A DNA stretch of 64,000 nt from Cetorhinus maximus (Eukaryota), in the NCBI RefSeq assembly GCF_964194155.1, contig NW_027597787.1, positions 1 to 64,000 on the forward strand, in the 5' to 3' direction. Positions 1 to 35,789 of the stretch are shown piece by piece (position 1 is the stretch's first letter; every line of letters starts with the position of its first letter). The notes under the pieces were generated by a model that was not told the DNA's origin, ran no database searches, and saw only the letters and a list, made by a program, of their open reading frames with translations. A program made the position numbers and the translations under genes.

Positions 1-170
1 TCAGACAAGGGAGAACTTTAGAGACAGTTTTGTCCAGTGTGTTAGTGGAAGACAGGGAAGTAGCAGAGGCAGCCGATCAGATTGTCTCAATCTTAGTGAC
101 AATGAAGCTCCATGAGCTCCTCACACTTGTTGGAGCTGAGGGTATTAGAGGTGGGGAGATGGAGAGTAAT
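1..170 (-). mobile_element. L2-type LINE fragment downstream of ZNF-1
   Basis: Reverse complement matches the LINE-like segments at 38400-38530 and 57190-57330. Confidence 0.6.
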
Positions 171-7647: not shown

Positions 7648-7720
7648 CACCCAAAGTGGGGCTTGAACCCACAAACCTGAGGTTACAGGCCTCATGCACT
7701 ACTGACTGTGCTAGCCAGAA
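7648..7720 (-). pseudogene. tRNA-Lys(CTT)-derived pseudogene with altered anticodon loop
   Basis: TTCTGGC TA GCAC AGTCAGTA GTGC A TGAGG CCTGTAA CCTCA GGTTT GTGGG TTCAAGC CCCAC TTTGGGT G; A/B boxes; T6 terminator 7 nt downstream; acceptor stem decayed. Confidence 0.75.
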
Positions 7721-23657: not shown

Positions 23658-23928
23658 TGTGTTATTTTGAATTATGACATTCTCCTGAACCTTTTTTTAT
23701 TTTTTTGCAAAAATATACTTTATTCATAAAATATCTTCAATCACATTCCAAACCATTTCAAAAACACCATTTCGAGGGTACAATCAGGTTCAACTTTTAC
23801 AAAATGTATCACCAGGTGCATCAGTATAAACAATATTACAGTCATTTACAGCCTTTCATTTTGAGCTGTACAGCCCGAGGGGCTTTTAAACAGTTCCCAG
23901 TCCCTCGGTGCACTGTGGCAGAAAGGTC

Positions 23929-26900
23929 TTAGATAGCGACCCTTCCCCATTGCGCCTTTGCGGCAGCTGCCCCAAGCTTCAGTGCGTCCCTCAGCACGTA
24001 ATCCTGGACTTGGATTGTGCCAGTCCGCAACACTCGGTCGGGGACAACTCTTTGTGCTGGAAGACCAACAAGTTTCGGGCAGACCAAAGCGCGTCTTTCA
24101 CCGAGTTGATGATCCTCCAGCTGCAGTTGATGTTTGTCTCGGTGTGTGTCCCTGGGAACAGCCCGTAGAGCACAGAGTCCTGTGTCACAGAACTGCTCGG
24201 GATGAACCTCGACAGCAACCACTGCATCTCTCTCCAGACCTTCTTTGCAAAGACACAATCCACAAGGAGGTGAACAACGGTCTCTTCCCCACCACAGCCA
24301 CCTCAAGGGCAACGTGCAGAGGGGGTGAGACTCCTGGCGTGTAGGAAGGATCTAACGGGAAGGGCCTTTCTCACCACCAGCCAAGCCACGTCTTGGTGCT
24401 TGTTGGAAAGTTCTAGCGATGAGGCATTCTGCCAAATGACTTTGAGTATGCTCGGGGAACCATCCCACAGGATCCACCCTCTCCTTTTCCCTCAGGACCT
24501 CTAAGACTTTACGTGCTGACCACTGCCTGATGGACTTGTGGTCAAAGGTGTTTTTCTGCATAAATTTTTCCACGAGGGACAGGTGGTACGGCACGGTCCA
24601 ACTACTTGGAGCATTCCGCGGCAGCGTGGCCAGACCCATCCTTCGCAACACCGGGGACAGGTAGAACCTCAGCACGTAGTGACACTTGGTGTTTGCGTAC
24701 TGAGGGTCTACGCACCGCTTGATGCAGCCACACACAAAGGTGGCCATCAGTATGAGGGCGATGTTGGGCACGTTTTTTCCCCCTTTATCTAGAGGCTTGT
24801 ACATCGCGTCCCTGCGGACACGATCCATTTTCGACCTCCAGATAAAGCGGAAGATGGCTCGAGTGATCGCCATCGCGCAGGAGTGTGGAATGGGCCAGAC
24901 CTGCGCCACGTACAGCAACAGCGAGAGTGCCTCACACCTGATGACCAGGTTCTTACCCGCAATGGAGAGGGAGCATCGCTCCCACATGCCCAGTTTCCTT
25001 TTCACCATAGCCACTCGCTCCTTCCAGTTTCTAACGTATGCCCTGGTCCCTCCGAACCATATCCCCAGCACCTTCAGGCCATCAGCCCTGACAGTGAAGG
25101 GGACAAAGGATCGGTCAGCCCAGTTCCCAAAGAACATGGCCTCGCTCTTCCCACGATTTACCTTGGCTCCCGAGGCCAGTTCGAACTGGTCGCAGATGTG
25201 GATCAGTCTGCGCACCGACAGCGGATCCGAGCAGAAGACGGCGACATCGTCCACGTACAGGGAGGCTTTTACCTGAGTGCCTCCACTGCCTGGGATCGTC
25301 ACTCCTCTTATGCCCGGATCCTTCCTGATGGACTCGGCAAAGGGTTCTATGCAACACATGAAAAAAACAGGCAAGAGAGGACAGCCCTGCCTGACTCCAG
25401 ATTTAATCGGAAAGCTATCTGTTTCCCACCCATTGATTGAGACTGCGCTACTGATGTTAGTGTAGAGCAGTTGGATCCAATTTCGAATTCCCTCCCCAAA
25501 CCCCATTTTGGAGAGCACATCCACCATGTAGGTGTGCGATATTCTGTCAAAGGCCTTCTCCTGATCCAAGCTGATGAGGCAGGTATCCACACCCCTGTCC
25601 TGTACATAGACAATCGTATCCCTGAGCAGCGCGAGGCTGTCAGAGATCTTCCTGCCTGGCACAGTGCAGGTCTGGTCAGGGTGAATCACCAATTCCAGAA
25701 CGGATTTGACCCGATTGGCGATGACCTTGGACAGAATCTTATAGTCCACATTCAACAGTGCAATGGGTCGCCAATTTCTAATTTCCTCCCTTCCCCCCTT
25801 GTGCTTGTAGATGAGGGTGATGATGCCTTTCCTCATTGATTCTGACATGCTGCCAGCCAGTAGCATACTCTCGTACACTTCTAGCAGGTCTGGGCCGATC
25901 AAGTCCCACAGCGCCGAATACAACTCCGCCGGCAAGCCATCGCTTCCGGGAGTTTTACTCTTCTCGAAGGACTCAAGGGCCTTAGTCAGTTCATCAGGAG
26001 TTAGCGATTTGTCCAGGCTCTCCCGCGTACTGTCGTCTAAGACCTCCGTGATAGAGGACAGGAAGGACTGGGAGGCCGTGCTGTCCGTGGGCTTCACGTC
26101 ATACAATCCGGCATAAAAGGATTTGCTGATCCTCAAAATGTCAGACTGTGATGACTTTACTGAGCCGTCTTCTTCCTTCAGGCTGCTGATCACAGAGCTC
26201 TCTCTGTGTACCTTTTGGAAGAAGAAACGTGAGCACGTCTCATAATGCTCCACGGAGCGGACTCTGGAACGGAAGATGATCTTGGAGGCCTCCGAGGCAA
26301 AGTGCGAGGCTTGCTGGCTCTTCACCTCTTGGAGTTCCTCCTTGACATCGACGCCCATCGACTGCAGTCGGAGCAGATTCTGAATGTTTTTCTGGAGTCG
26401 AGACATTTCCCTCTGTTCCTTTCTAGCTTTCTGGGTGCCTTTGAGGATGAAAAACCTCTTGATGTTTCCCTTGATCGCTTCCCACCAGTGTGTCAGGGAC
26501 TCAAAGAGGGGTTTCACGGTTCTCCAACCTTTGTAATCCCTCTTGAGCTCCTCAATGTTCTCTGGGGTCAGCAGTTGCACATTTAGCTTCCATGCCCCCC
26601 TGCCCACCCTCAGGTCCTTCACTAAGTGGCAGTCCGCCAGTAGGAGGCAGTGGTCAGAGAAAAACACCGGCTTGACGTCGGTGGATCTGACTGTGAATGC
26701 ACGGGACACAAATAGGAAGTCTATCCTGGAACGAATGGACCCGTCTGGCTGCGACCAGGTGTATCTACGCTGCGCTCCGTCTGCAGGGTTGCTGAAGACG
26801 TCGTGCAACTTGGCATCCTTAACTGTTTCCATCAGGGATCTGGACGTAGCGTCCAATCTGCTGTCGGCCCTGCTGGATCGTCCAGCCGTATCGATGATGC

Positions 26901-27333
26901 AGTTGAAGTCACCGTCCAGAATGACCAGCCTGGAGGTTGCCAGCAGCAGTGGGAGCTGCTGAAAAACCTCCAGCCGCTCGGCCCCTTGTGACGGGCCATA
27001 CACGTTAATTAACCGGAGTGGAGCATTCTTGTATATTACGTCTGCTACGAGGAGGCGCCCGCCCACCACCTCCTTAACCTCAGAGACGGTGAAGTTGCCT
27101 CCCCGCAGCAGAATACCCATGCCGGAGCAACGAGAGTTGTTTCCGCCCGACCAGATCGATGGCCCATGGGACCACCATCGTGACCATTGCCTGTAGGAGC
27201 TGAGGTGTGGTATCGCACACTCCTGCAGAAACAAAATGTCAGCTTTGACCTTGGCAAGGTAGTCCAAGGTCGCAACACGTCGCGTAGTCGATTTAATGCT
27301 ACGCACATTTATGGATACAATCTTTAAACCCAT
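23929..27333 (-). CDS. Tx1 unit B ORF2 (APE endonuclease, RT, C-terminal CCHC), frameshifted near 24447
   Basis: SINVRS, FLQE, GDFN, SRID, SDH (EN); KTPGSDG, WRPIALLN, LDQEKAFD, GVRQGCP, YVDD (RT); C-terminal part continues in another frame. Confidence 0.92.
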
Positions 27334-27343
27334 TTTAAAGCAT

Positions 27344-28882
27344 TTATTCTCTTACCAAACCTGTTGTCTCTGAGAGTCCCAGAGCTTTAGTCTGCTCCTT
27401 CATACCCGTAGTGAACTCAAATTGCTTCACTTTGGATGGGCTGAGGAAATTTTCCTGAACCTCCCCATTGGCGGTGTTCTGCTCGGGTGGCATCTGGGGG
27501 ACTGAGCAGAGAGTGGGGTTTGAAATGACCTTTGTTGGAGAAGCTTCTCCAATCCTCTCACCCTCTGGGACGTTCCTGCTCCCGGCTTCCCGGAGCTGGG
27601 GTGCGCTGAGCGTCTCACTGCTCCCAGATTCCTGGGGCTGTGGTGCGCTGGCCTCTTCGGGTTGTAGGCAAAGTTGGGGTGCGCTGGTCTCCTCATTGTC
27701 TCCAATGTTCTGAAGCTCGGGTGCCTCGTCCTCCAACTCCCGAGAGCTTTGCCACTTCTTCTGTCGGTGCCGCCTTGGCCCTTCTTCATCCGAAGAGCTG
27801 CTGCCCTTGTCATCCATTTCAAATGGGAGATGCCTCTTGCCACTTGTCTGGGAAATGGCTTGGTTTCTTCTTAGCCCCTTCTTCCTTTTGGCTCTCTTCA
27901 CCGTCTGCCACTCCCCCTGCTGCTTTGCCACTGCTGCCTCCTCCCCCTCCATTGATTCGCTGTCCTGAGGACTGGGAGGTTCAGGGGGCAGTGCTGTTGA
28001 TTGGCTGTCAGTTGCCTCAATCTTTTCCTCCACCTTATCTCTCTCTGTGTCCTCCTTTGTCCCATTGTTCTTCCTGGGGGCCTTGGTGGTTGGAGTGACA
28101 CGAAGCATTTCTTCTGCTTCCCTCTCATTGGCTTTGGCTGCCTGTACATAAGTACGGCAGCGTTTGGGGCAGGTCCTGTAGAGGTGACCTGCCTCGACAC
28201 ACAGGTTGCAGCACTTAGCCTGTTTGCAGTCTTTTGTCTGGTGCCCTTCCTGTTTGCAGTTCTTGCAGAGGACGGCACTGCAGTTGGCTGCCACATGACC
28301 AGACTTGCCGCATGAGCGACAAAGTTTGGGTTGCCCAGCGTAGACGAGGTAACCACAGCTTCCCCCGATAGCGAATCTGGAAGGAGGGTTGAAGGTGGCT
28401 CCCTTACCGTCGGTTTTGAGCGTGACCTTAATCTGGCGTTTGCATATCCAGATCCCCAAATCGTCTCTAACCGCGGTGCAGCTCCCCACCTTATCGAAGT
28501 ACCTGGTGAGGAAGGTGAGCACGTCGGCGACAGGGACGAAGGGGTCATAAAGATGCACATTCACCACCCTGTCCCGTTGCGACAGCAGAGCAAAGAGCGG
28601 CTCCGCTGTCAGGATCTTCATCTCCGGCAGGTCTCTCTTCTTGAACACCTTCAGGAGCTTGACGCAGTCTGCCACTCGCTTGAACGTCACATCAAAATAT
28701 CCAGCGCTGGGGAAGTCCTGCAGGCAGTAGATTTCCGCAGCTTCGAAACCACACACCTTTAACAGGATCCTCCTGGCGAAGACTGCCCGATCCACAGGTG
28801 CTCCTCCTTCTTCGCTGCCCTTCACCATGACTTGGATGGTGTTAGGTACCCCATGGTATGGGGCTTGATTGGTTATAGCCAT
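27344..28882 (-). CDS. Tx1 unit B ORF1, intact 512 aa, three CCHC zinc knuckles
   Basis: CRSCGKSGHVAANC, CKNCKQEGHQTKDC, CNLCVEAGHLYRTC; 10-nt spacer to ORF2. Confidence 0.9.
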   Translation of the reverse strand: MAITNQAPYHGVPNTIQVMVKGSEEGGAPVDRAVFARRILLKVCGFEAAEIYCLQDFPSAGYFDVTFKRVADCVKLLKVFKKRDLPEMKILTAEPLFALLSQRDRVVNVHLYDPFVPVADVLTFLTRYFDKVGSCTAVRDDLGIWICKRQIKVTLKTDGKGATFNPPSRFAIGGSCGYLVYAGQPKLCRSCGKSGHVAANCSAVLCKNCKQEGHQTKDCKQAKCCNLCVEAGHLYRTCPKRCRTYVQAAKANEREAEEMLRVTPTTKAPRKNNGTKEDTERDKVEEKIEATDSQSTALPPEPPSPQDSESMEGEEAAVAKQQGEWQTVKRAKRKKGLRRNQAISQTSGKRHLPFEMDDKGSSSSDEEGPRRHRQKKWQSSRELEDEAPELQNIGDNEETSAPQLCLQPEEASAPQPQESGSSETLSAPQLREAGSRNVPEGERIGEASPTKVISNPTLCSVPQMPPEQNTANGEVQENFLSPSKVKQFEFTTGMKEQTKALGLSETTGLVRE

Positions 28883-28892
28883 TGCTTGACGA

Positions 28893-28944
28893 CCTTTCCC
28901 TGGCAGAAACCGTGATCAGGGTCTCTCCCCTGCCAGGTAAGTAT
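28893..28944 (-). ncRNA. U1 snRNA-derived 5' head of Tx1 unit B (partial, remodelled)
   Basis: ATACTTACCTGGCAGGGGAGAGACCCTGATCACGGTTTCTGCCAGGGAAAGG; first 21 nt identical to vertebrate U1 5' end. Confidence 0.88.
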
Positions 28945-28960
28945 CTTTATAGTCTTTGTC

Positions 28961-29865
28961 TTTTTTTTTGCAAAAATATACTTTATTCATAAAATATCTT
29001 CAACCACATTCCAAACCATTTCAAAAACACCATTACCAGGGTACAATCAGGTTCAACTTTTACGAAATGTATCACCAGGTGCATCAGTACAAACAATGTT
29101 TCAATCATTTACAGCCTTTCATTTTGAGCTGTACAGCTCGAGGGGGTTTTAAACAGTTCCCAGCCCCTCGGTGCACTGTGGCAGAAAGGTCTTAGACAGT
29201 GACCCTTCCCCATTGTGCCTTTGCGGCAGCTGCCCCAAGCTTTAGTGCGTCCCTCAGCACGTAGTCCTGGATTTTGGATTGTGCCAGTCCGCAACACTCG
29301 GTCGGGGACAACTCTTTGTGCTGGAAGACCAACAAGTTTCGGGCAGACCAAAGCACGTCTTTCACCGAGTTGATGATCCTCCAGCTGCAGTTGATGTTTG
29401 TCTCGGTGTGCGTCCCTGGGAACAGCCTGTAGAGCACAGAGTCCTGTGTCACAGAACTGCTCGGGGTGAACCTCGACAGAAACCACTGCATCTCTCTCCA
29501 GACCTTCTTTGCAAAGGCACAATCCACCAAGAGGTGAACAACAGTCTCCTCCCCACTACAGCCACCTCGAGGGCAACGTGCAGAGGGGGTGAGACTCCTG
29601 GCGTGTAGGAAGGATCTGACGGGGAGGGCCTTTTTCACCACTAGCCAAGATACGTCTTGGTGCTTGTTGGAAAGTTCTAGCGATGAGGCATTCTGCCAAA
29701 TGACTTTGACAGTCTGCTCGGGGAACCATCTCCTGACGTGTAGGAAGGATCTGACGGGGAGGGCCTTTCTCACCACCAGCCAAGCCACGTCTTGGTGCTT
29801 GTTGGAAATTTCTGGCGATGATGCATTCTGCCAAATGACTTTGACAGTCTGCTCGGGGAACCATC
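28961..29865 (-). mobile_element. 5'-truncated Tx1 3' fragment with a 135-bp duplicated start
   Basis: ORF 29192-29884 has WFPEQTVKVIWQNASS twice; period 135 bp; own 3'UTR and A-tail. Confidence 0.88.
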
Positions 29866-30102
29866 TTTGTCTTTTTTTTTGCAAAAATATACTTTATTCA
29901 TAAAATATCTTCAATCACATTCCAAACCATTTCAAAAACAACATTACAAGGGTACAATCCAGGTTAAACTTTTACAAAATGTATCACCAGGTGCATCAGT
30001 ACAAACAATATTACAATCATTTCCAGCCTTTCATTTTGAGCTGTACAGCCCGAGGGGCTCTAAACAGTTCCCAGTCTCTCGGTGCGCTGTGGCAGAAAGG
30101 TC

Positions 30103-33100
30103 TTAGACAGCGACCCTTCCCCATTGCGCCTTTGCGGCAGCTGCCCCAAGCTTTAGTGCGTCCCTCAGCACATAGTCCTGGACTTTGGTTTGTGCCAGTC
30201 CGCAACAATCGGTCGGGGACAACTCTTTGTGCTGGAAGACCAACAAGTTTCGGGCAGACCAAAGCGCGTCTTTCACCGAGTTGATGATCCTCCAGCTGCA
30301 GTTGATGTTTGTCTCGGTGTGTGTCCCTGGGAACAGCCCGTAGAGCACAGAGTCCTGTGTCACAGAACTGCTCGGGATGAACCTCGACAGCAACCACTGC
30401 ATCTCTCTCCAGACTTTCTTTGCAAAGGCACAATCCACAAGGAGGTGAACAACGGTCTCTTCCCCACCACAGCCACCTCGAGGGCAATGTGCAGAGGGGG
30501 TGAGACTCCTGGCGTGTAGGAAGGATCTGACGGGGAGGGCCTTTCTCACCACCAGCCAAGTGGTGCTTGGTGCTTGTTGGAAAGTTCTGGCGATGAAGCA
30601 TTCTGCCAAATGACTTTGACAGTCTGCTCGGGGAACCATCCCACAGGGTCCACCCTCTCCTTTTCCCTCAGGGCCTCTAAGACTTTACGTGCTGACCACT
30701 GCCTGATGGACTTGTGGTCAAAGGTGTTTTTCTGCATAAATTTTTCCACGAGGGACAGGTGGTACAGCACGGTCCAACTACTTGGAGCATTCCGCGGCAG
30801 CGTGGCCAGACCCATCCTTCGCAACACCGGGGACAGGTAGAACCTCAGCACGTAGTGACACTTGGTGTTTGCGTACTGAGGGTCTACGCACCGCTTGATG
30901 CAGCCACACACAAAGGTGGCCATCAGTATGAGGGCGATGTTGGGCACGTTTTTTCCCCCTTTATCTAGAGGCTTGTACATCGCGTCCCTGCGGACACGAT
31001 CCATTTTCGACCTCCAGATAAAGCGGAAGATGGCTCGAGTGATCGCCATCGCGCAGGAGTGTGGAATGGGCCAGACCTGCGCCACGTACAGCAACAGCGA
31101 GAGTGCCTCACACCTGATGACCAGGTTCTTACCCGCAATGGAGAGGGAGCATCGCTCCCACATGCCCAGTTTCCTTTTCACCATAGCCACTCGCTCCTTC
31201 CAGTTTCTAACGTATGCCCTGGTCCCTCCGAACCATATCCCCAGCACCTTCAGGCCATCAGCCCTGACAGTGAAGGGGACAAAGGATCGGTCAGCCCAGT
31301 TCCCAAAGAACATGGCCTCGCTCTTCCCACGATTTACCTTGGCTCCCGAGGCCAGTTCGAACTGGTCGCAGATGTGGATCAGTCTGCGCACCGACAGCGG
31401 ATCCGAGCAGAAGACGGCGACATCGTCCACGTACAGGGAGGCTTTTACCTGAGTGCCTCCACTGCCTGGGATCGTCACTCCTCTTATGCCCGGATCCTTC
31501 CTGATGGACTCGGCAAAGGGTTCTATGCAACACATGAAAAAAACAGGCAAGAGAGGACAGCCCTGCCTGACTCCAGATTTAATCGGAAAGCTATCTGTTT
31601 CCCACCCATTGATTGAGACTGCGCTACTGATGTTAGTGTAGAGCAGTTGGATCCAATTTCGAATTCCCTCCCCAAACCCCATTTTGGAGAGCACATCCAC
31701 CATGTAGGTGTGCGATATTCTGTCAAAGGCCTTCTCCTGATCCAAGCTGATGAGGCAGGTATCCACACCCCTGTCCTGTACATAGACAATCGTATCCCTG
31801 AGCAGCGCGAGGCTGTCAGAGATCTTCCTGCCTGGCACAGTGCAGGTCTGGTCAGGGTGAATCACCAATTCCAGAACGGATTTGACCCGATTGGCGATGA
31901 CCTTGGACAGAATCTTATAGTCCACATTCAACAGTGCAATGGGTCGCCAATTTCTAATTTCCTCCCTTCCCCCCTTGTGCTTGTAGATGAGGGTGATGAT
32001 GCCTTTCCTCATTGATTCTGACATGCTGCCAGCCAGTAGCATACTCTCGTACACTTCTAGCAGGTCTGGGCCGATCAAGTCCCACAGCGCCGAATACAAC
32101 TCCGCCGGCAAGCCATCGCTTCCGGGAGTTTTACTCTTCTCGAAGGACTCAAGGGCCTTAGTCAGTTCATCAGGAGTTAGCGATTTGTCCAGGCTCTCCC
32201 GCGTACTGTCGTCTAAGACCTCCGTGATAGAGGACAGGAAGGACTGGGAGGCCGTGCTGTCCGTGGGCTTCACGTCATACAATCCGGCATAAAAGGATTT
32301 GCTGATCCTCAAAATGTCAGACTGTGATGACTTTACTGAGCCGTCTTCTTCCTTCAGGCTGCTGATCACAGAGCTCTCTCTGTGTACCTTTTGGAAGAAG
32401 AAACGTGAGCACGTCTCATAATGCTCCACGGAGCGGACTCTGGAACGGAAGATGATCTTGGAGGCCTCCGAGGCAAAGTGCGAGGCTTGCTGGCTCTTCA
32501 CCTCTTGGAGTTCCTCCTTGACATCGACGCCCATCGACTGCAGTCGGAGCAGATTCTGAATGTTTTTCTGGAGTCGAGACATTTCCCTCTGTTCCTTTCT
32601 AGCTTTCTGGGTGCCTTTGAGGATGAAAAACCTCTTGATGTTTCCCTTGATCGCTTCCCACCAGTGTGTCAGGGACTCAAAGAGGGGTTTCACGGTTCTC
32701 CAACCTTTGTAATCCCTCTTGAGCTCCTCAATGTTCTCTGGGGTCAGCAGTTGCACATTTAGCTTCCATGCCCCCCTGCCCACCCTCAGGTCCTTCACTA
32801 AGTGGCAGTCCGCCAGTAGGAGGCAGTGGTCAGAGAAAAACACCGGCTTGACGTCGGTGGATCTGACTGTGAATGCACGGGACACAAATAGGAAGTCTAT
32901 CCTGGAACGAATGGACCCGTCTGGCTGCGACCAGGTGTATCTACGCTGCGCTCCGTCTGCAGGGTTGCTGAAGACGTCGTGCAACTTGGCATCCTTAACT
33001 GTTTCCATCAGGGATCTGGACGTAGCGTCCAATCTGCTGTCGGCCCTGCTGGATCGTCCAGCCGCATCGATGATGCAGTTGAAGTCACCGTCCAGAATGA

Positions 33101-33509
33101 CCAGCCTGGAGGTTGCCAGCAGCAGTGGGAGCTGCTGAAAAACCTCCAGCCGCTCGGCCCCTTGTGACGGGCCATACACGTTAATTAACCGGAGTGGAGC
33201 ATTCTTGTATATTACGTCTGCTACGAGGAGGCGCCCGCCCACCACCTCCTTAACCTCAGAGACGGTGAAGTTGCCTCCCCGCAGCAGAATACCCAGGCCG
33301 GAGGGACGAGAGTCGTTTCCGCCCGACCAGATCGATGGCCCATGGGACCACCATCGTGACCATTGCCCGTAGGAGCTGAGGTGCGGTATCGCACATTGCT
33401 GCAGAAACAACAGGTCAGCTTTGACCTTGGCAAGGTAGTCCAAGGTCGCAACACATCGCGTAGTAGATTTGATGCTACGCACATTTATGGATACAATCTT
33501 TAAACCCAT
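30103..33509 (-). CDS. Tx1 unit A ORF2, frameshifted near 30560
   Basis: Same EN/RT motifs as unit B; CCHC domain (CPRGGCGGEETVVHLLVDC) in ORF 30103-30639. Confidence 0.92.
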
Positions 33510-33519
33510 TTTAAAGCAT

Positions 33520-35026
33520 TTATTCTCCTACCAAACCCGTTGTCTCTGAGAGTCCCAGACCTTTAGTCTGCTCCTTCATACCCGTAGTGAGCTCAAATTG
33601 CTTCACTTTGGATGGGCTGAGGTAGTTCTCCTTGGCGGTGTTCTGCTCAGGTGCAATCAGGGGGTTCGCGTTGAGAGCAGGTTTTGAGATGACCTTTGGT
33701 GGAGAAGCTTCTCCAAAACTCACCCCCTCTGGGGCATTGCTGTTCCCGGCTTCCCGGAGCTGGGGTGCGATGATTGCCTCACTGCTCCCAGGTTCCTGGG
33801 GCTGTGGTGTACTGGCCTCCTCAGGTTGCAGGCAAAGTTGGGGTGCTCTGGTCTCCTTGTTGTCTCCAATGTTCTGGAGCTCGGGTGTCTCGTCCTCCAA
33901 CGCCCTGGAGCTTTGCCGCTTCTTCTGTCGGTGCCGCCCTGGCACTTCTTCATCCGAAGAGCTGCTGCCTTTGTCATCCATGTCGGATGGGAGACGCCTC
34001 TTGCCACTTGTCTGGGAAGTGGCTTTGCTTCTTCTTCGCTCCTTCTTCCTTTTGGCTCTCCTCACCGTCTGCCACTCCCCCTGCTGCTTTTCCACTGCTG
34101 CTTCCTCCTCCATTGATTCGCTGTCCTGAGGAGTGGGAGGTTCAGGGAGTGGTGCTGTTGTTTGGCTATCTGTTGCCTCAATCTCTTCCTCCACCTTGTC
34201 TCTCTCTGTGTCCTCCTTTGTCCCGTTGAGCTCCCTGGGGGCCTTGGTGGTTGGAGTGACATGAAGCATTTCTTCTGCTTCCCCCTCGTTGGCTTTGGCT
34301 GCCTGTGCATAAGTACGGCCTGTAGAGGTGACCTGCCTCGCCACACAGGTTGCAGCACTCAGCCTGTTTGCAGTCTTTTCTCTGGTGCCCTTCCTGTTTC
34401 CAGATCTTGCAGAGGGAGGCGCTGCAGTTGGCCGCCACATGACCAGCCTTGCCGCATGAGCGACAATGCTTGGGTTGCCCAGCGTAGACCAGGTAGCCAC
34501 AGTTTCCCCCGATAGCGAATCTGGAAGGAGGGTGGAAAATGGCTCCCTTACCGTCGGTCTTTAGCGTGACCTTAAACTGGCGTTTGCCTGTCCAGATCCC
34601 CAAGTCGTCTCGAATCTCGGTGCCGCTCCCCACCTTATCGAAGTACCTGGTGAGGAAGGTGACCACGTCAGCGACAGGGACGAAGGGGTTGTACAGATGC
34701 ACCATCACCACACAGTCCCGTTGCAACTGCAGAGCAAAGAGCGGCTCCGCCGTCAGGATCTTCATCTCCGGCAGGTCTCTCTTCTCCTCGAACACCCTCA
34801 GGAGCTGGACGCAGTCTGCCACCCGCTTGAACGTCATGTCGAAAAAACCAGCGCTGGGGAAGTCCTGCAGGGTGAAGATCTCCGGAGCTTCAAAACTGCA
34901 CGCCTTCAACAGGATCCTCCTGGCGAAGAAGGCCCGATCCATAGGTGATCCTCCTTCGCTGTCCTTCACCGTGACTCAGACGGTGTTAGATAACCCATGG
35001 TATGGGTTTTGATTGGTTATAGCCTT
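33520..35026 (-). pseudogene. Tx1 unit A ORF1, disrupted
   Basis: Start ATG changed to AAG, early TGA (~34976), deletion/frameshift after the third knuckle (~34318); clearly diverged from unit B ORF1. Confidence 0.85.
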
Positions 35027-35036
35027 TGCTTCCCGA

Positions 35037-35087
35037 CCTTGCCTTGGCAGAACCATGCTCATGGTCTCTCCCCTGCCAGGTAAGTAT
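35037..35087 (-). ncRNA. U1 snRNA-derived 5' head of Tx1 unit A
   Basis: ATACTTACCTGGCAGGGGAGAGACCATGAGCATGGTTCTGCCAAGGCAAGG. Confidence 0.88.
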
Positions 35088-35114
35088 CAGGACATTCTCC
35101 TGAACCTGTCCTAA

Positions 35115-35546
35115 ATTCTTTCGAGTTATCAACAGTCACAGATTGCAACTCTTTCGAGTACAATCACAGTTCTTGGTTTCCGGGAGTGGGACATGAACCC
35201 ACAACCCTCTGATTCAAAGGCGAGGGTGCTATGGACTGAGCCACAGCTGACACCTCCTCAATTCTTTCGAGTTATCAACAGTCACAGATTGCAACTCTTT
35301 CAAGCACAATCACAGTTCTTGGTTTCCGGGAGTGGGACATGAACCCACAACCCTCTGATTCAAAGGCGAGGGTGCTATGAACTGAGCCACAGCTGACACC
35401 TCAAAAATTCTTTCGAGTTATCAACAGTCACAGATTGCAACTCTTTCGAGTACAATCACAGTTCTTGGTTTCCGGGAGTGGGACATGAACCCACAACCCT
35501 CTGATTCAAAGGCGAGGGTGTTATGGACTGAGCCACAGCTGACACC
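35115..35546 (-). mobile_element. Head-to-tail trimer of a 140-bp tRNA-derived SINE
   Basis: Units 35115-35254, 35261-35400, 35407-35546; A box TGGCTCAGT, B box GGTTCATGTCC; flanking direct repeat aacctgtcctaa (35103-35114, 35548-35559). Confidence 0.88.
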
Positions 35547-35789
35547 CAACCTGTCCTAACCCTTCTGCCAGTTCACTTATTGGAAACAGGGACTCTCCTT
35601 GTTTTAATGTTAACACTCCATGTCTCCCCAGTTATTCATTTAAGTCAGCCCATGAATTGTTTGTGCATTGTTTCATCATGTTCCCACATTTCATTAACAA
35701 ATGTTGAAACGTTTGCTTCGCACCCACAGGGTTTCATCTGTTTAAAGCCACAAATAAAGGTCCAGTTTTCTCCTGGAGGTTGAGACAAA

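Follow-up and report, generated by a model that had tools for sequence, protein, structure and literature searches.

A Cetorhinus maximus LINE with U1- and U2-derived 5' ends that favours U1 and U2 genes and is probably transcribed from their promoters

The retrotransposon array in the window

The window, a 64,000-nt stretch of contig NW_027597787.1 of Cetorhinus maximus, contains two units of one LINE family (A and B), with fragments of the same family between them and a SINE-like array beside them. The features are as follows:

35115..35547, minus strand: three tandem copies of a SINE-like repeat of about 146 bp, with their own 12-bp duplication (35559-35548, 35114-35103)
35091..35107, minus strand: left copy of the 17-bp target-site duplication, then 3 extra bases (CTG) before +1
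35031..35087, minus strand: U1-derived head of unit A (U1 nt 1-33, 6-nt gap, drifted nt 40-57)
35062: ATG at head nt 26 of unit A, which opens the ORF1 frame (MSMVLPRQGREAKAITN)
33520..35062, minus strand: ORF1 of unit A, broken by a stop at codon 29 and split into two frames
30103..33509, minus strand: ORF2 of unit A, AP endonuclease and reverse transcriptase, frame broken near the 3' end
29872..30102, minus strand: 3' UTR of unit A, AATAAA (29898) and poly(A)
28945..29871, minus strand: two 5'-truncated 3'-end fragments of the same LINE family (29865-29730 and 29730-28961)
29871 and 28960: short repeat GACAAAGA bracketing the two 3'-end fragments; a 16-nt spacer precedes unit B
28887..28944, minus strand: U1-derived head of unit B, without ATG and one base longer than the in-frame type
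27344..28882, minus strand: ORF1 of unit B, 512 aa, open, with two ZCCHC3-type RNA-binding domains and zinc knuckles
24352..27333, minus strand: ORF2 of unit B as listed, 993 aa, about 2.1 kb identical to unit A
23693..24351, minus strand: rest of unit B, AATAAA (23724) and poly(A)
23676..23692, minus strand: right copy of the 17-bp target-site duplication

The original prediction, made from the window alone, was that both units begin exactly at U1 +1, and this was confirmed by the two exact matches of ATACTTACCTGGCAGGGGAGA (minus strand, at 35087 and 28944; none in 100 shuffles). The remodelling described for the head also agreed with the U1 genes of this genome, and the six nucleotides absent from it are AAGGTG in the L010-type U1 gene. 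As had been stated, the Rfam search of the window returned neither a U1 gene nor a U1 3' half; Rfam does not detect the U1-derived head. The ORF1 start had been placed 62 nt from +1, which is correct for unit B (ATG at nt 63) and incorrect for unit A, which carries AAG there; the ATGs of unit A, at head nt 26 and head nt 32, belong to the U1-derived part and share the frame of ORF1. The two units had been regarded as full-length autonomous elements and as separate evidence. Neither is intact, their ORF2s being 987 and 993 aa versus 1135 aa in intact relatives, and they are not independent, since they are 100% identical over about 2.1 kb of ORF2 (85-93% in the ORF1 regions) and have one outer duplication in common: the 17-bp AGGTTCAGGAGAATGTC at 35107-35091 and 23692-23676 brackets the whole block of unit A, fragments and unit B. 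The claim that this duplication is unrelated to U1 is qualified by its first letters, AGGTTC, which also begin the U1 target site, a weak likeness of 6 nt. The SINE-like repeat, in which ARAGORN found no tRNA gene, is likely a non-autonomous partner of the LINE, because copies of it break up three U1 genes at the site used by the LINE.

Start codon and fold of the head

In most copies the sole in-frame ATG of ORF1 is U1 nt 26-28, and U1 sequence from nt 26 onward is in the ORF1 frame, so the head is not the plain 5' UTR that it had been thought to be. Counted as copies, which represent about five or six lineages and are not independent, the U1 ATG was in frame in 37 of 40 U1-headed ends without a downstream ATG, head ATGs were lost in 10 of the 12 U1-headed ends that retain a downstream ATG, all 14 U2+U1 heads were in frame, and all three U2-only heads keep the downstream ATG. 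The heads share the 6-nt gap and substitutions that were found in none of the intact U1 genes viewed, which argues that they are inherited and not re-copied from U1 RNA.

A CCTGGC/GCCAGG helix had been proposed to extend stem-loop I. It forms in the predicted fold of unit B (z = -1.15), not in that of unit A (z = -1.67), and lacks support as a conserved feature. With L071 at -1.77 and the true U1 at -2.61, the z-scores of the four folded sequences (62-nt heads or U1 5' ends) did not support any new conserved helix in the head.

Identity of the family

The element of about 5.2 kb shows the hallmarks of L1/Tx1-type non-LTR retrotransposons, i.e., two ORFs, a poly(A) tail, duplications and 5' truncation, and with its two ORFs it is not a SINEU, which is short (<500 bp) and non-coding. 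ORF1 encodes RNA-binding and zinc-knuckle domains, and ORF2 encodes an AP endonuclease (PF03372 at residues 7-228) and a reverse transcriptase. We take the LINE to be a putative Tx1 element from the original prediction and its architecture; in protein searches the nearest proteins were amphibian, 45-47% identical and without a family name. U1-headed Tx1 LINEs are already published for crocodilians (Kojima 2015), where their transcription was left open. Our literature search returned no U1-targeting LINE; the supplements of PMC4494074 could contain U1-flanked Tx1 copies, and the family may already be catalogued in Repbase/Dfam.

FastTree trees of natural copies, rooted on L077 and leaving out four of 38 rows for ORF1, none for the endonuclease and three for the reverse transcriptase, had poorly supported deep branches and were used for two points only. 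In the ORF1 tree the U2+U1-headed lineage has short branches and falls within the AAG-type U1 lineage, and L192b of the U2+U1 lineage is placed elsewhere in the reverse transcriptase tree. Members of the U2+U1-headed lineage, a young sister lineage that enters U2 at nt 39, sit in U1 genes and in U2 genes. One 617-nt contig with a second organism label spans the head and the beginning of ORF1 at about 90% identity, which hints weakly that a relative may also have the head. Four contig sets from runs guessed to be RNA speak neither for nor against expression, as start, strand and level are not readable in them.

Insertion into U1 and U2 genes

Among 39 promoter-bearing (PSE+U1) loci, 14 carried an interrupting insertion at nt ~33-57, which was the LINE in 11 loci and the SINE in three, where chance would give 0.001-0.012 hits. 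Junctions of tail, poly(A) and U1 numbered 140 in the genome and those with U2 nt 39 numbered 921 (reversed-pattern control 0 for each), most of them being segmental duplicates (C29, C30, unplaced contigs) and not separate events; 23 distinct U1 junction types were found among the loci examined. The 3' junctions fall at U1 nt 37-41 and U2 nt 38/39, and the head ends coincide with the target sites: on the right, the U1 duplications reach to U1 ~57, and U2 heads stop at nt 34-43.

Insertion favours the U1 and U2 sites, yet the majority of copies lie elsewhere. Only one of 30 sampled 3' ends adjoins U1, and the 30 3' flanks taken from the first 124 Mb of C1 yielded no target consensus beyond a weak G/T-T-T bias. 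The 921 U2 junctions (mixed tail types, many duplicated) compare with 3220 and 1227 exact 3' ends for two types of tail; insertion is not near-exclusive to U2, as it is for Keno, and U1 is also hit. The original prediction that U1 is carried instead of targeted was thus half right, since dispersed copies do carry the head but U1 genes are entered far above chance. Intact U1 3' halves downstream, which it had counted against itself, do occur in a subset of copies.

Promoter-fused and dispersed copies

Full-length copies were found whose +1 coincides exactly with the start of U1 or U2, with the promoter upstream, the 3' half downstream and the 5' arm unduplicated. Seamless 5' junctions that use upstream host sequence carried by the element occur in L076, L186, L205 and L250-L252. 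Three U1-headed copies (L076, L186, L205) are fused seamlessly into U1 genes, and all are decayed, with broken ORFs and 93.7-96.6% identity to the nearest of 20 dispersed copies. Source copies behind a U1 PSE promoter, as anticipated, are present structurally in L076 and L186; in L205, just 15 nt of U1 upstream flank is left of the promoter, the U1 3' half follows, and the head stands in place of the 5' sequence that belongs to the host variant. Since these three are broken and diverged, no U1-fused source was identified for the window copies. Twelve copies directly adjoin the U2 upstream flank or promoter, and the three U2-fused copies checked all have a 100% U2 promoter, both ORFs open, U2 38-187/191 downstream and 98.4-99.2% identity to the dispersed copies L247 and L248. 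The intact promoter-fused copies found were all fused to U2, none to U1.

Most headed copies are dispersed in the genome and share derived changes, so the head is inherited with the element and travels inside it, as had been proposed. In the first 30 head matches out of 107, one of 24 headed LINEs lies behind a promoter, and the U1 retrocopies are five full-length and one short. Apart from tails of the family itself, the 5' flanks of 30 headed copies have nothing in common at the junction. The dispersed L247 consists of head, element, poly(A), U2 39-55 and a second 3' end, all within one 22-bp duplication, and L204 is its U1 counterpart with a 9-bp duplication; the duplications were convincing in these two of five composites outside the window and not convincing around L201, L202 and L203. 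Among dispersed copies, open ORFs were found in L247 (both) and L239 (ORF2). G stands at -1 in 25 of 42 complete heads versus a 20% background (p = 3e-8), and at -2 and -3 in three of 42 each. This G may be read as a cap signature, but it often falls within the apparent duplication and could stem from a cleavage preference; 5'-truncated copies are a poor control because microhomology blurs their junctions.

Discussion

The LINE favours U1 and U2 genes, and judging from the structures of the copies, its sources are probably those fused behind an snRNA promoter, with transcripts that would start at snRNA +1. Pol II would start there and read the entire element into a capped RNA, sometimes continuing beyond the poly(A) signal to enter the tandem unit that follows, and every full-length daughter would then carry an snRNA 5' end. 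On entry into an snRNA gene, the cDNA end may anneal to the matching upstream arm and overwrite it, which would rebuild a promoter-fused source and spread head mutations, as proposed for R2 with upstream 28S sequence; the heteroduplex model of R2 provides the precedent for such annealing (PMC3774820). In the main lineages, U1 nt 26-28 has turned into the start codon of ORF1 by sequence and presumably in translation, which would explain the frame-keeping 6-nt gap and the U1 remnant retained when a U2 head was added. Dispersed copies, including the two in the window, carry a head without a promoter and would mostly be dead ends.

We lean slightly towards a stricter version, in which the LINE is an obligate parasite of snRNA promoters: it would have no promoter of its own, its only live sources would be fused at +1 of U1 or U2 genes, the fusion would be rebuilt each cycle through homology of the snRNA 5' arm, heads would be swapped between U1 and U2, U1 nt 26-57 would encode the N-terminus of ORF1p, and the same cycle would explain the heads and transcription of crocodilian SINEU and U1/U2-headed Tx1 elements. 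According to PMC2241894, RNAs made from U1 promoters have a tendency to disregard poly(A) signals, and the long RNAs among them are exported in the manner of mRNA. On the other hand, Pol II from snRNA promoters is described as failing to enter long-range productive elongation and as not recruiting CPSF (PMC3337830), which is a real obstacle for an RNA of 5.2 kb.

This poor elongation is one reason to consider that the head was captured once as an internal promoter or self-sufficient 5' structure, that any full-length copy can be a source and that snRNA insertion is a side effect, a head with such a role having been the second option of the original prediction; the dispersal of most headed copies and the open ORFs of L247 and L239 also point that way. 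We consider this quite unlikely, as unrelated U1 and U2 heads were exchanged without loss of activity, heads stop at the target sites, a dispersed copy bears the U2 duplication fingerprint of an snRNA-resident source, and PMC4494074 reports that no promoter-like sequence was found in SINEU heads. In a further model, the reverse transcriptase switches template to abundant U1/U2 RNA and gains new heads again and again in this way, and promoters that happen to lie upstream drive transcription; we consider this very unlikely. Kojima proposed template switching for SINEU, U1 retrocopies do occur in this genome and the process could account for the first captures, but the common gap and substitutions speak against it, and it predicts neither promoter-fused copies with an snRNA 3' half nor head ends at target sites. 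As routine propagation it is already largely refuted; for the founding captures, no sequence test here separates it from insertion plus read-through.

The simplest reading, that the head is merely the upstream half of a targeted snRNA gene and lies outside the element, fits the U1/U2 3' halves downstream of many copies, but it is refuted and retains next to no probability: the window copies and most headed copies have no promoter or U1 3' half, U1 lies downstream in none of 17 full-length tailed copies (of 20 examined), and several dispersed copies have their own unrelated 12-17-bp duplications. Beyond completing the 5' junction, the head RNA might guide site choice to the matching snRNA gene. 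The U1 head keeps a drifted copy of the U1 cut-site sequence, the U2+U1-headed lineage enters both genes, and the off-target sites share only the weak G/T-T-T bias, so strong endonuclease specificity is not apparent. Such guidance is rather unlikely, because many U1 insertions are 5'-truncated, their cDNA falling short of the head (although the RNA still bore it), short 3' fragments and the SINE enter the same site, Keno and Utopia with different endonucleases share one U2 site, and open chromatin or protein tethering at snRNA genes fits the data equally well.

How U1/U2-headed retroelements are transcribed is stated to be an open question in Kojima 2015, which contains no start-site data (PMC4494074). 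The intact young U2-start fusions, the older U1 fusions and the dispersed daughter with an snRNA-source fingerprint make this question testable at named loci. If snRNA promoters are indeed the source, Pol II snRNA promoters would drive a 5-kb coding RNA in a germ line although they reportedly elongate poorly, U1 would be added to LINE targets (the 2015 list had just a DNA transposon), and a segment of a spliceosomal RNA would have been recruited into protein-coding sequence. The host bears a heavy load, with about one third of the promoter-bearing U1 loci found disrupted.

The closest known systems are the crocodilian Tx1-Mar elements, Tx1-2_Crp, Tx1-2B_Crp and Tx1-4_AMi with a U1 head and Tx1-11_Crp with a U2 head, a clade that groups with Keno (PMC4494074). 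As described there, they are likewise LINEs with U1/U2-derived 5' ends, stacked U1 and U2 pieces, poly(A) tails and target preference instead of strict specificity, but they target Mariner-N4/LTR elements, whereas the Cetorhinus LINE targets the U1 and U2 genes themselves. Their head addition is ascribed to template switching and their transcription is called an open question (PMC4494074); promoter-fused copies and a U1 ATG opening ORF1 set the Cetorhinus LINE apart from Tx1-Mar as described. The duplication of SINEU-3 (PMC4494074) starts AGGTTC, as the U1 site here does, a lead of 6 nt. Keno likewise has an AP endonuclease and a reverse transcriptase, and after the Cetorhinus LINE U2 resumes at nt 39, the site given for Keno/Utopia (PMC4640811, PMC4494074). 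This U2 junction belongs to sister lineages 92-96% identical to unit B, the window copies not being in U2. Unlike Keno as described, the Cetorhinus LINE also enters U1, is mostly dispersed and takes the snRNA 5' end along.

R2 has a restriction-like endonuclease, rDNA transcription and a self-cleaving ribozyme. The Cetorhinus LINE would work like R2 with upstream 28S sequence in its putative host co-transcription, and resembles it in putative upstream host sequence on the RNA, uniform seamless 5' junctions and inherited junction deletions (PMC3774820). It differs from R2 in that the host start site would set the 5' end, the promoter would be a Pol II snRNA promoter and the host sequence lies inside the coding frame. 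Dada-U1, a DNA transposon and the sole U1-targeting element in the 2015 list, shares the U1-gene target and differs in its 6-7-bp duplications, with neither a reverse transcriptase nor a head (PMC8869645, PMC4640811).

Results

Units A and B, the two full-length LINEs of the window, are located within a C2H2 zinc-finger gene cluster, and the whole block of unit A, two 3' fragments and unit B is enclosed by one 17-bp duplication. Around this insertion (window 394-55519) eight C2H2 zinc-finger ORFs of at least 150 aa are listed.

LINEs and other repeats in the window
35087-29872, minus strand: unit A, full-length LINE
28944-23693, minus strand: unit B, full-length LINE
35115-35547: SINE-like repeat, three tandem copies of about 146 bp, not called tRNA by ARAGORN
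7656-7713, minus strand: probable SINE head, seen as a partial match to tRNA (38.3 bits)

ORF1 encodes ZCCHC3-type RNA-binding domains and zinc knuckles, and ORF2 an AP endonuclease and a reverse transcriptase; the nearest labelled match was a Scyliorhinus protein, at 69% over a short segment, and the genome is probably that of a cartilaginous fish. About 2.1 kb of ORF2 is 100% identical between unit A (about 33000-30900) and unit B (about 26800-24700), with flanking parts at 85-98%, which points to a recent exchange between the two tandem units, by gene conversion or recombination, or else to assembly collapse.

Both units begin with U1 sequence, as originally noticed; 21 exact U1 bases gave two matches versus none in 100 shuffles. 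Compared with U1 genes of the same genome (42 Rfam matches, 15 viewed), the head consists of U1 nt 1-33, a 6-nt gap and drifted nt 40-57. A head plus ORF1 query of the 3.99-Gb genome gave 40 matches, and the head was present in 30/30 examined copies, a set biased by the query and including the window and its duplicate; contig C24 carries a 100% duplicate of the searched stretch and is also rich in U1 genes. The head-only pattern had 107 exact matches, and among the first 30 of them 24 run on into this LINE (23 belong to the main family, one to a relative at about 75%); the other 6 are retrocopies or fragments of U1. Eighteen further head matches on C29, C364 and C652 collapse to three duplicated loci. 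Of 20 full-length copies examined, 17 had the tail in range; U1 was found downstream in none of these, and six have clean 12-17-bp duplications, so the U1 piece travels inside the element, as had been proposed. Both ORFs were open in none of these copies. L077 (C6:40.69 Mb), L079 and L094 represent a relative with 75-82% identity to unit B. It has the same U1 1-33 head and gap, followed by a leader of about 190 nt and its own ATG; the head is either old or exchanged between families. The promoter-less U1 retrocopies L014 and L015 have G at -1, seem to extend into U1-like 3' flank and may be derived from capped pre-U1.

The accompanying claim that U1 is not the target did not hold. A search pattern limited to the promoter block plus U1 nt 3-12 (reversed control, 1 match) identified 39 loci, which may include duplicates among the unplaced ones (L187 and L190 have one insertion in common). 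Twenty-five are intact, three of them rated so solely from a full-length Rfam match. The other 14 carry an interruption at nt ~33-57, caused by the LINE in 11 and by a SINE-like repeat in 3. By chance, 39 windows of 25 bp should receive 0.001 hits if the 4447 counted exact ends are used, or 0.012 if 50,000 ends are assumed. There are 140 junctions of tail, poly(A) and U1, mostly duplicates on C29 and C30, and in all 23 distinct types among the loci examined U1 resumes at about nt 34-41. Only 1/30 sampled LINE 3' ends adjoins U1, so insertion into U1 genes is a preference rather than a specificity. The SINE-like repeat of the window also splits three U1 genes (L112, L118 and L119), at the site used by the LINE, and in L188 carries a LINE insertion of its own; it is likely a non-autonomous partner of the LINE.

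On C29 (0-5.7 Mb), C30 (4.4-8.9 Mb) and numerous unplaced contigs, the family has heavily invaded large duplicated arrays made up of U2 genes and of U1 3' halves that lack a promoter, and most junction counts originate there. U1 genes at L192:417-9901 and L188/L189 hold trains of at least four insertions spanning 12-14 kb, whose stacked U1+U2+U1 heads resemble SINEU-1 subfamily structures. At L001, L006 and L007, an intact U1 gene is followed after some 0.7-0.9 kb by a U2+U1-headed copy, away from the usual site.

An authentic U1 upstream region precedes 1/24 headed copies (L049/L076), in which a block at -55 is conserved and ATGCAAAT stands at -208; the PSE and DSE of human U2 have like positions according to a passage of PMC3337830. 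Past its poly(A) follow U1 nt 37-53, then another 3' fragment, U1 41-162 and the U1 downstream flank. The order in L076 and L186 is promoter, head, element, poly(A) and U1 3' half, and the duplicated 5' arm is absent. In L205, 15 nt of upstream flank remain, and the U1 3' half is that of the C24-type variant; in place of this variant's own 5' sequence stands the head of the element. The ORFs are broken in all three.

The sister lineage has heads of U2 nt 1-43, 1-37 or 1-34 with a U1 remnant, or of U2 alone, and 921 junctions of tail, poly(A) and U2 were found. The U2 upstream flank directly adjoins 12 copies; U2-fused loci include C29:2369612 and C713:113888. The three examined have a 100% U2 promoter, the U2 3' part downstream, an ORF1 opened by the U1-derived ATG and an ORF2 of 1135 aa, and are 98.4-99.2% identical to the dispersed copies L247 and L248. 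In L247 the head and element with their poly(A) are followed by U2 39-55 and by another 3' end with poly(A); a single 22-bp duplication, with an additional G, encloses the whole, which would most simply have arisen by read-through from a tandem source within a U2 gene. The internal fingerprint recurs in L248, whose right end lies beyond the stretch examined. Four dispersed composites have a U1 fingerprint, with a convincing outer duplication in L204 only. Some close relatives, in the trees, of the young U2-fused and L247-type copies lie in U1 genes as well. At L246:755-4629 an internally deleted member occupies a variant U2 gene, inserted between nt 37 and 38; the gene belongs to a 4.3-kb tandem unit, and its upstream region is unlike the main class of U2 promoter.

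After exclusion of the 4 heads resident in genes from the 46 complete ones, G occupies -1 in 25/42 versus a 20% background (p = 3e-8), with 3/42 at each of -2 and -3. Reverse transcriptase copying an m7G cap would add such a G, and the element RNA may thus carry this cap type. A cleavage preference at the target is a possible alternative, as the -1 G often also matches the target sequence.

The 75 distinct ORF1 5' ends comprised 52 U1-headed, 14 U2+U1, 3 U2-only and 6 truncated or long-leader ends. The ATG at U1 nt 26 is in frame in 37/40 U1-headed ends without a downstream ATG, and the other three have private indels. Where a downstream ATG is present (12 ends), both head ATGs are lost in 10, whose length varies freely, and kept in 2; one of the latter, L071, still has the CTCCCAGGAC of U1 itself, which an ancestral state would be expected to show. 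An ATG in the U1 remnant is in frame in 14/14 U2+U1 heads, and U2-only heads keep the downstream ATG in 3/3. In the U1-ATG frame the 6-nt gap is a loss of two codons, and 3/4 common substitutions within nt 40-57 leave the amino acid unchanged, although numbers are small. This pattern suggests that translation would start at the U1 ATG. The gap also takes out most of loop I, the U1-70K site, and this loss may matter for an mRNA.

Discussion

U1 targeting, the seamless fusions, the U2 arm, the -1 G and the start-codon pattern all fit one cycle, in which the element would insert at an snRNA-gene site, be fused at snRNA +1 by homology, be transcribed from the snRNA promoter and disperse headed daughter copies. 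Sequence directly shows the targeting, the geometry of the fusions and the start-codon pattern; use of the promoter, type of cap, fusion by homology and a start of translation at the U1 ATG are inferred. Four rival readings, an internal promoter, routine template switching, plain targeting and RNA guidance, were weighed and are less likely. By analogy, the seamless U1 fusions fit a cDNA that would overwrite the host 5' arm; such overwriting was proposed for R2 elements with upstream 28S sequence, in a model that also accounts for inherited junction deletions (passages of PMC3774820). Transcription is the weak point of the cycle. Poor elongation and absence of CPSF at snRNA promoters, reported in PMC3337830, count against this step. 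According to PMC2241894, long transcripts from the U1 promoter are treated like mRNA and tend to run past poly(A) signals, and the read-through composites agree with this.

In our searches of the open-access literature we found no U1-targeting LINE, snRNA-promoter-fused source or U1-derived start codon. The LINE with a captured U1 head is a real feature but not new in kind, since U1- and U2-headed Tx1 LINEs of crocodilians were already described by Kojima in 2015 (PMC4494074). The U2 junction of the present family, where U2 resumes at nt 38/39, is the same site as that given for Keno and Utopia in a passage of PMC4640811.
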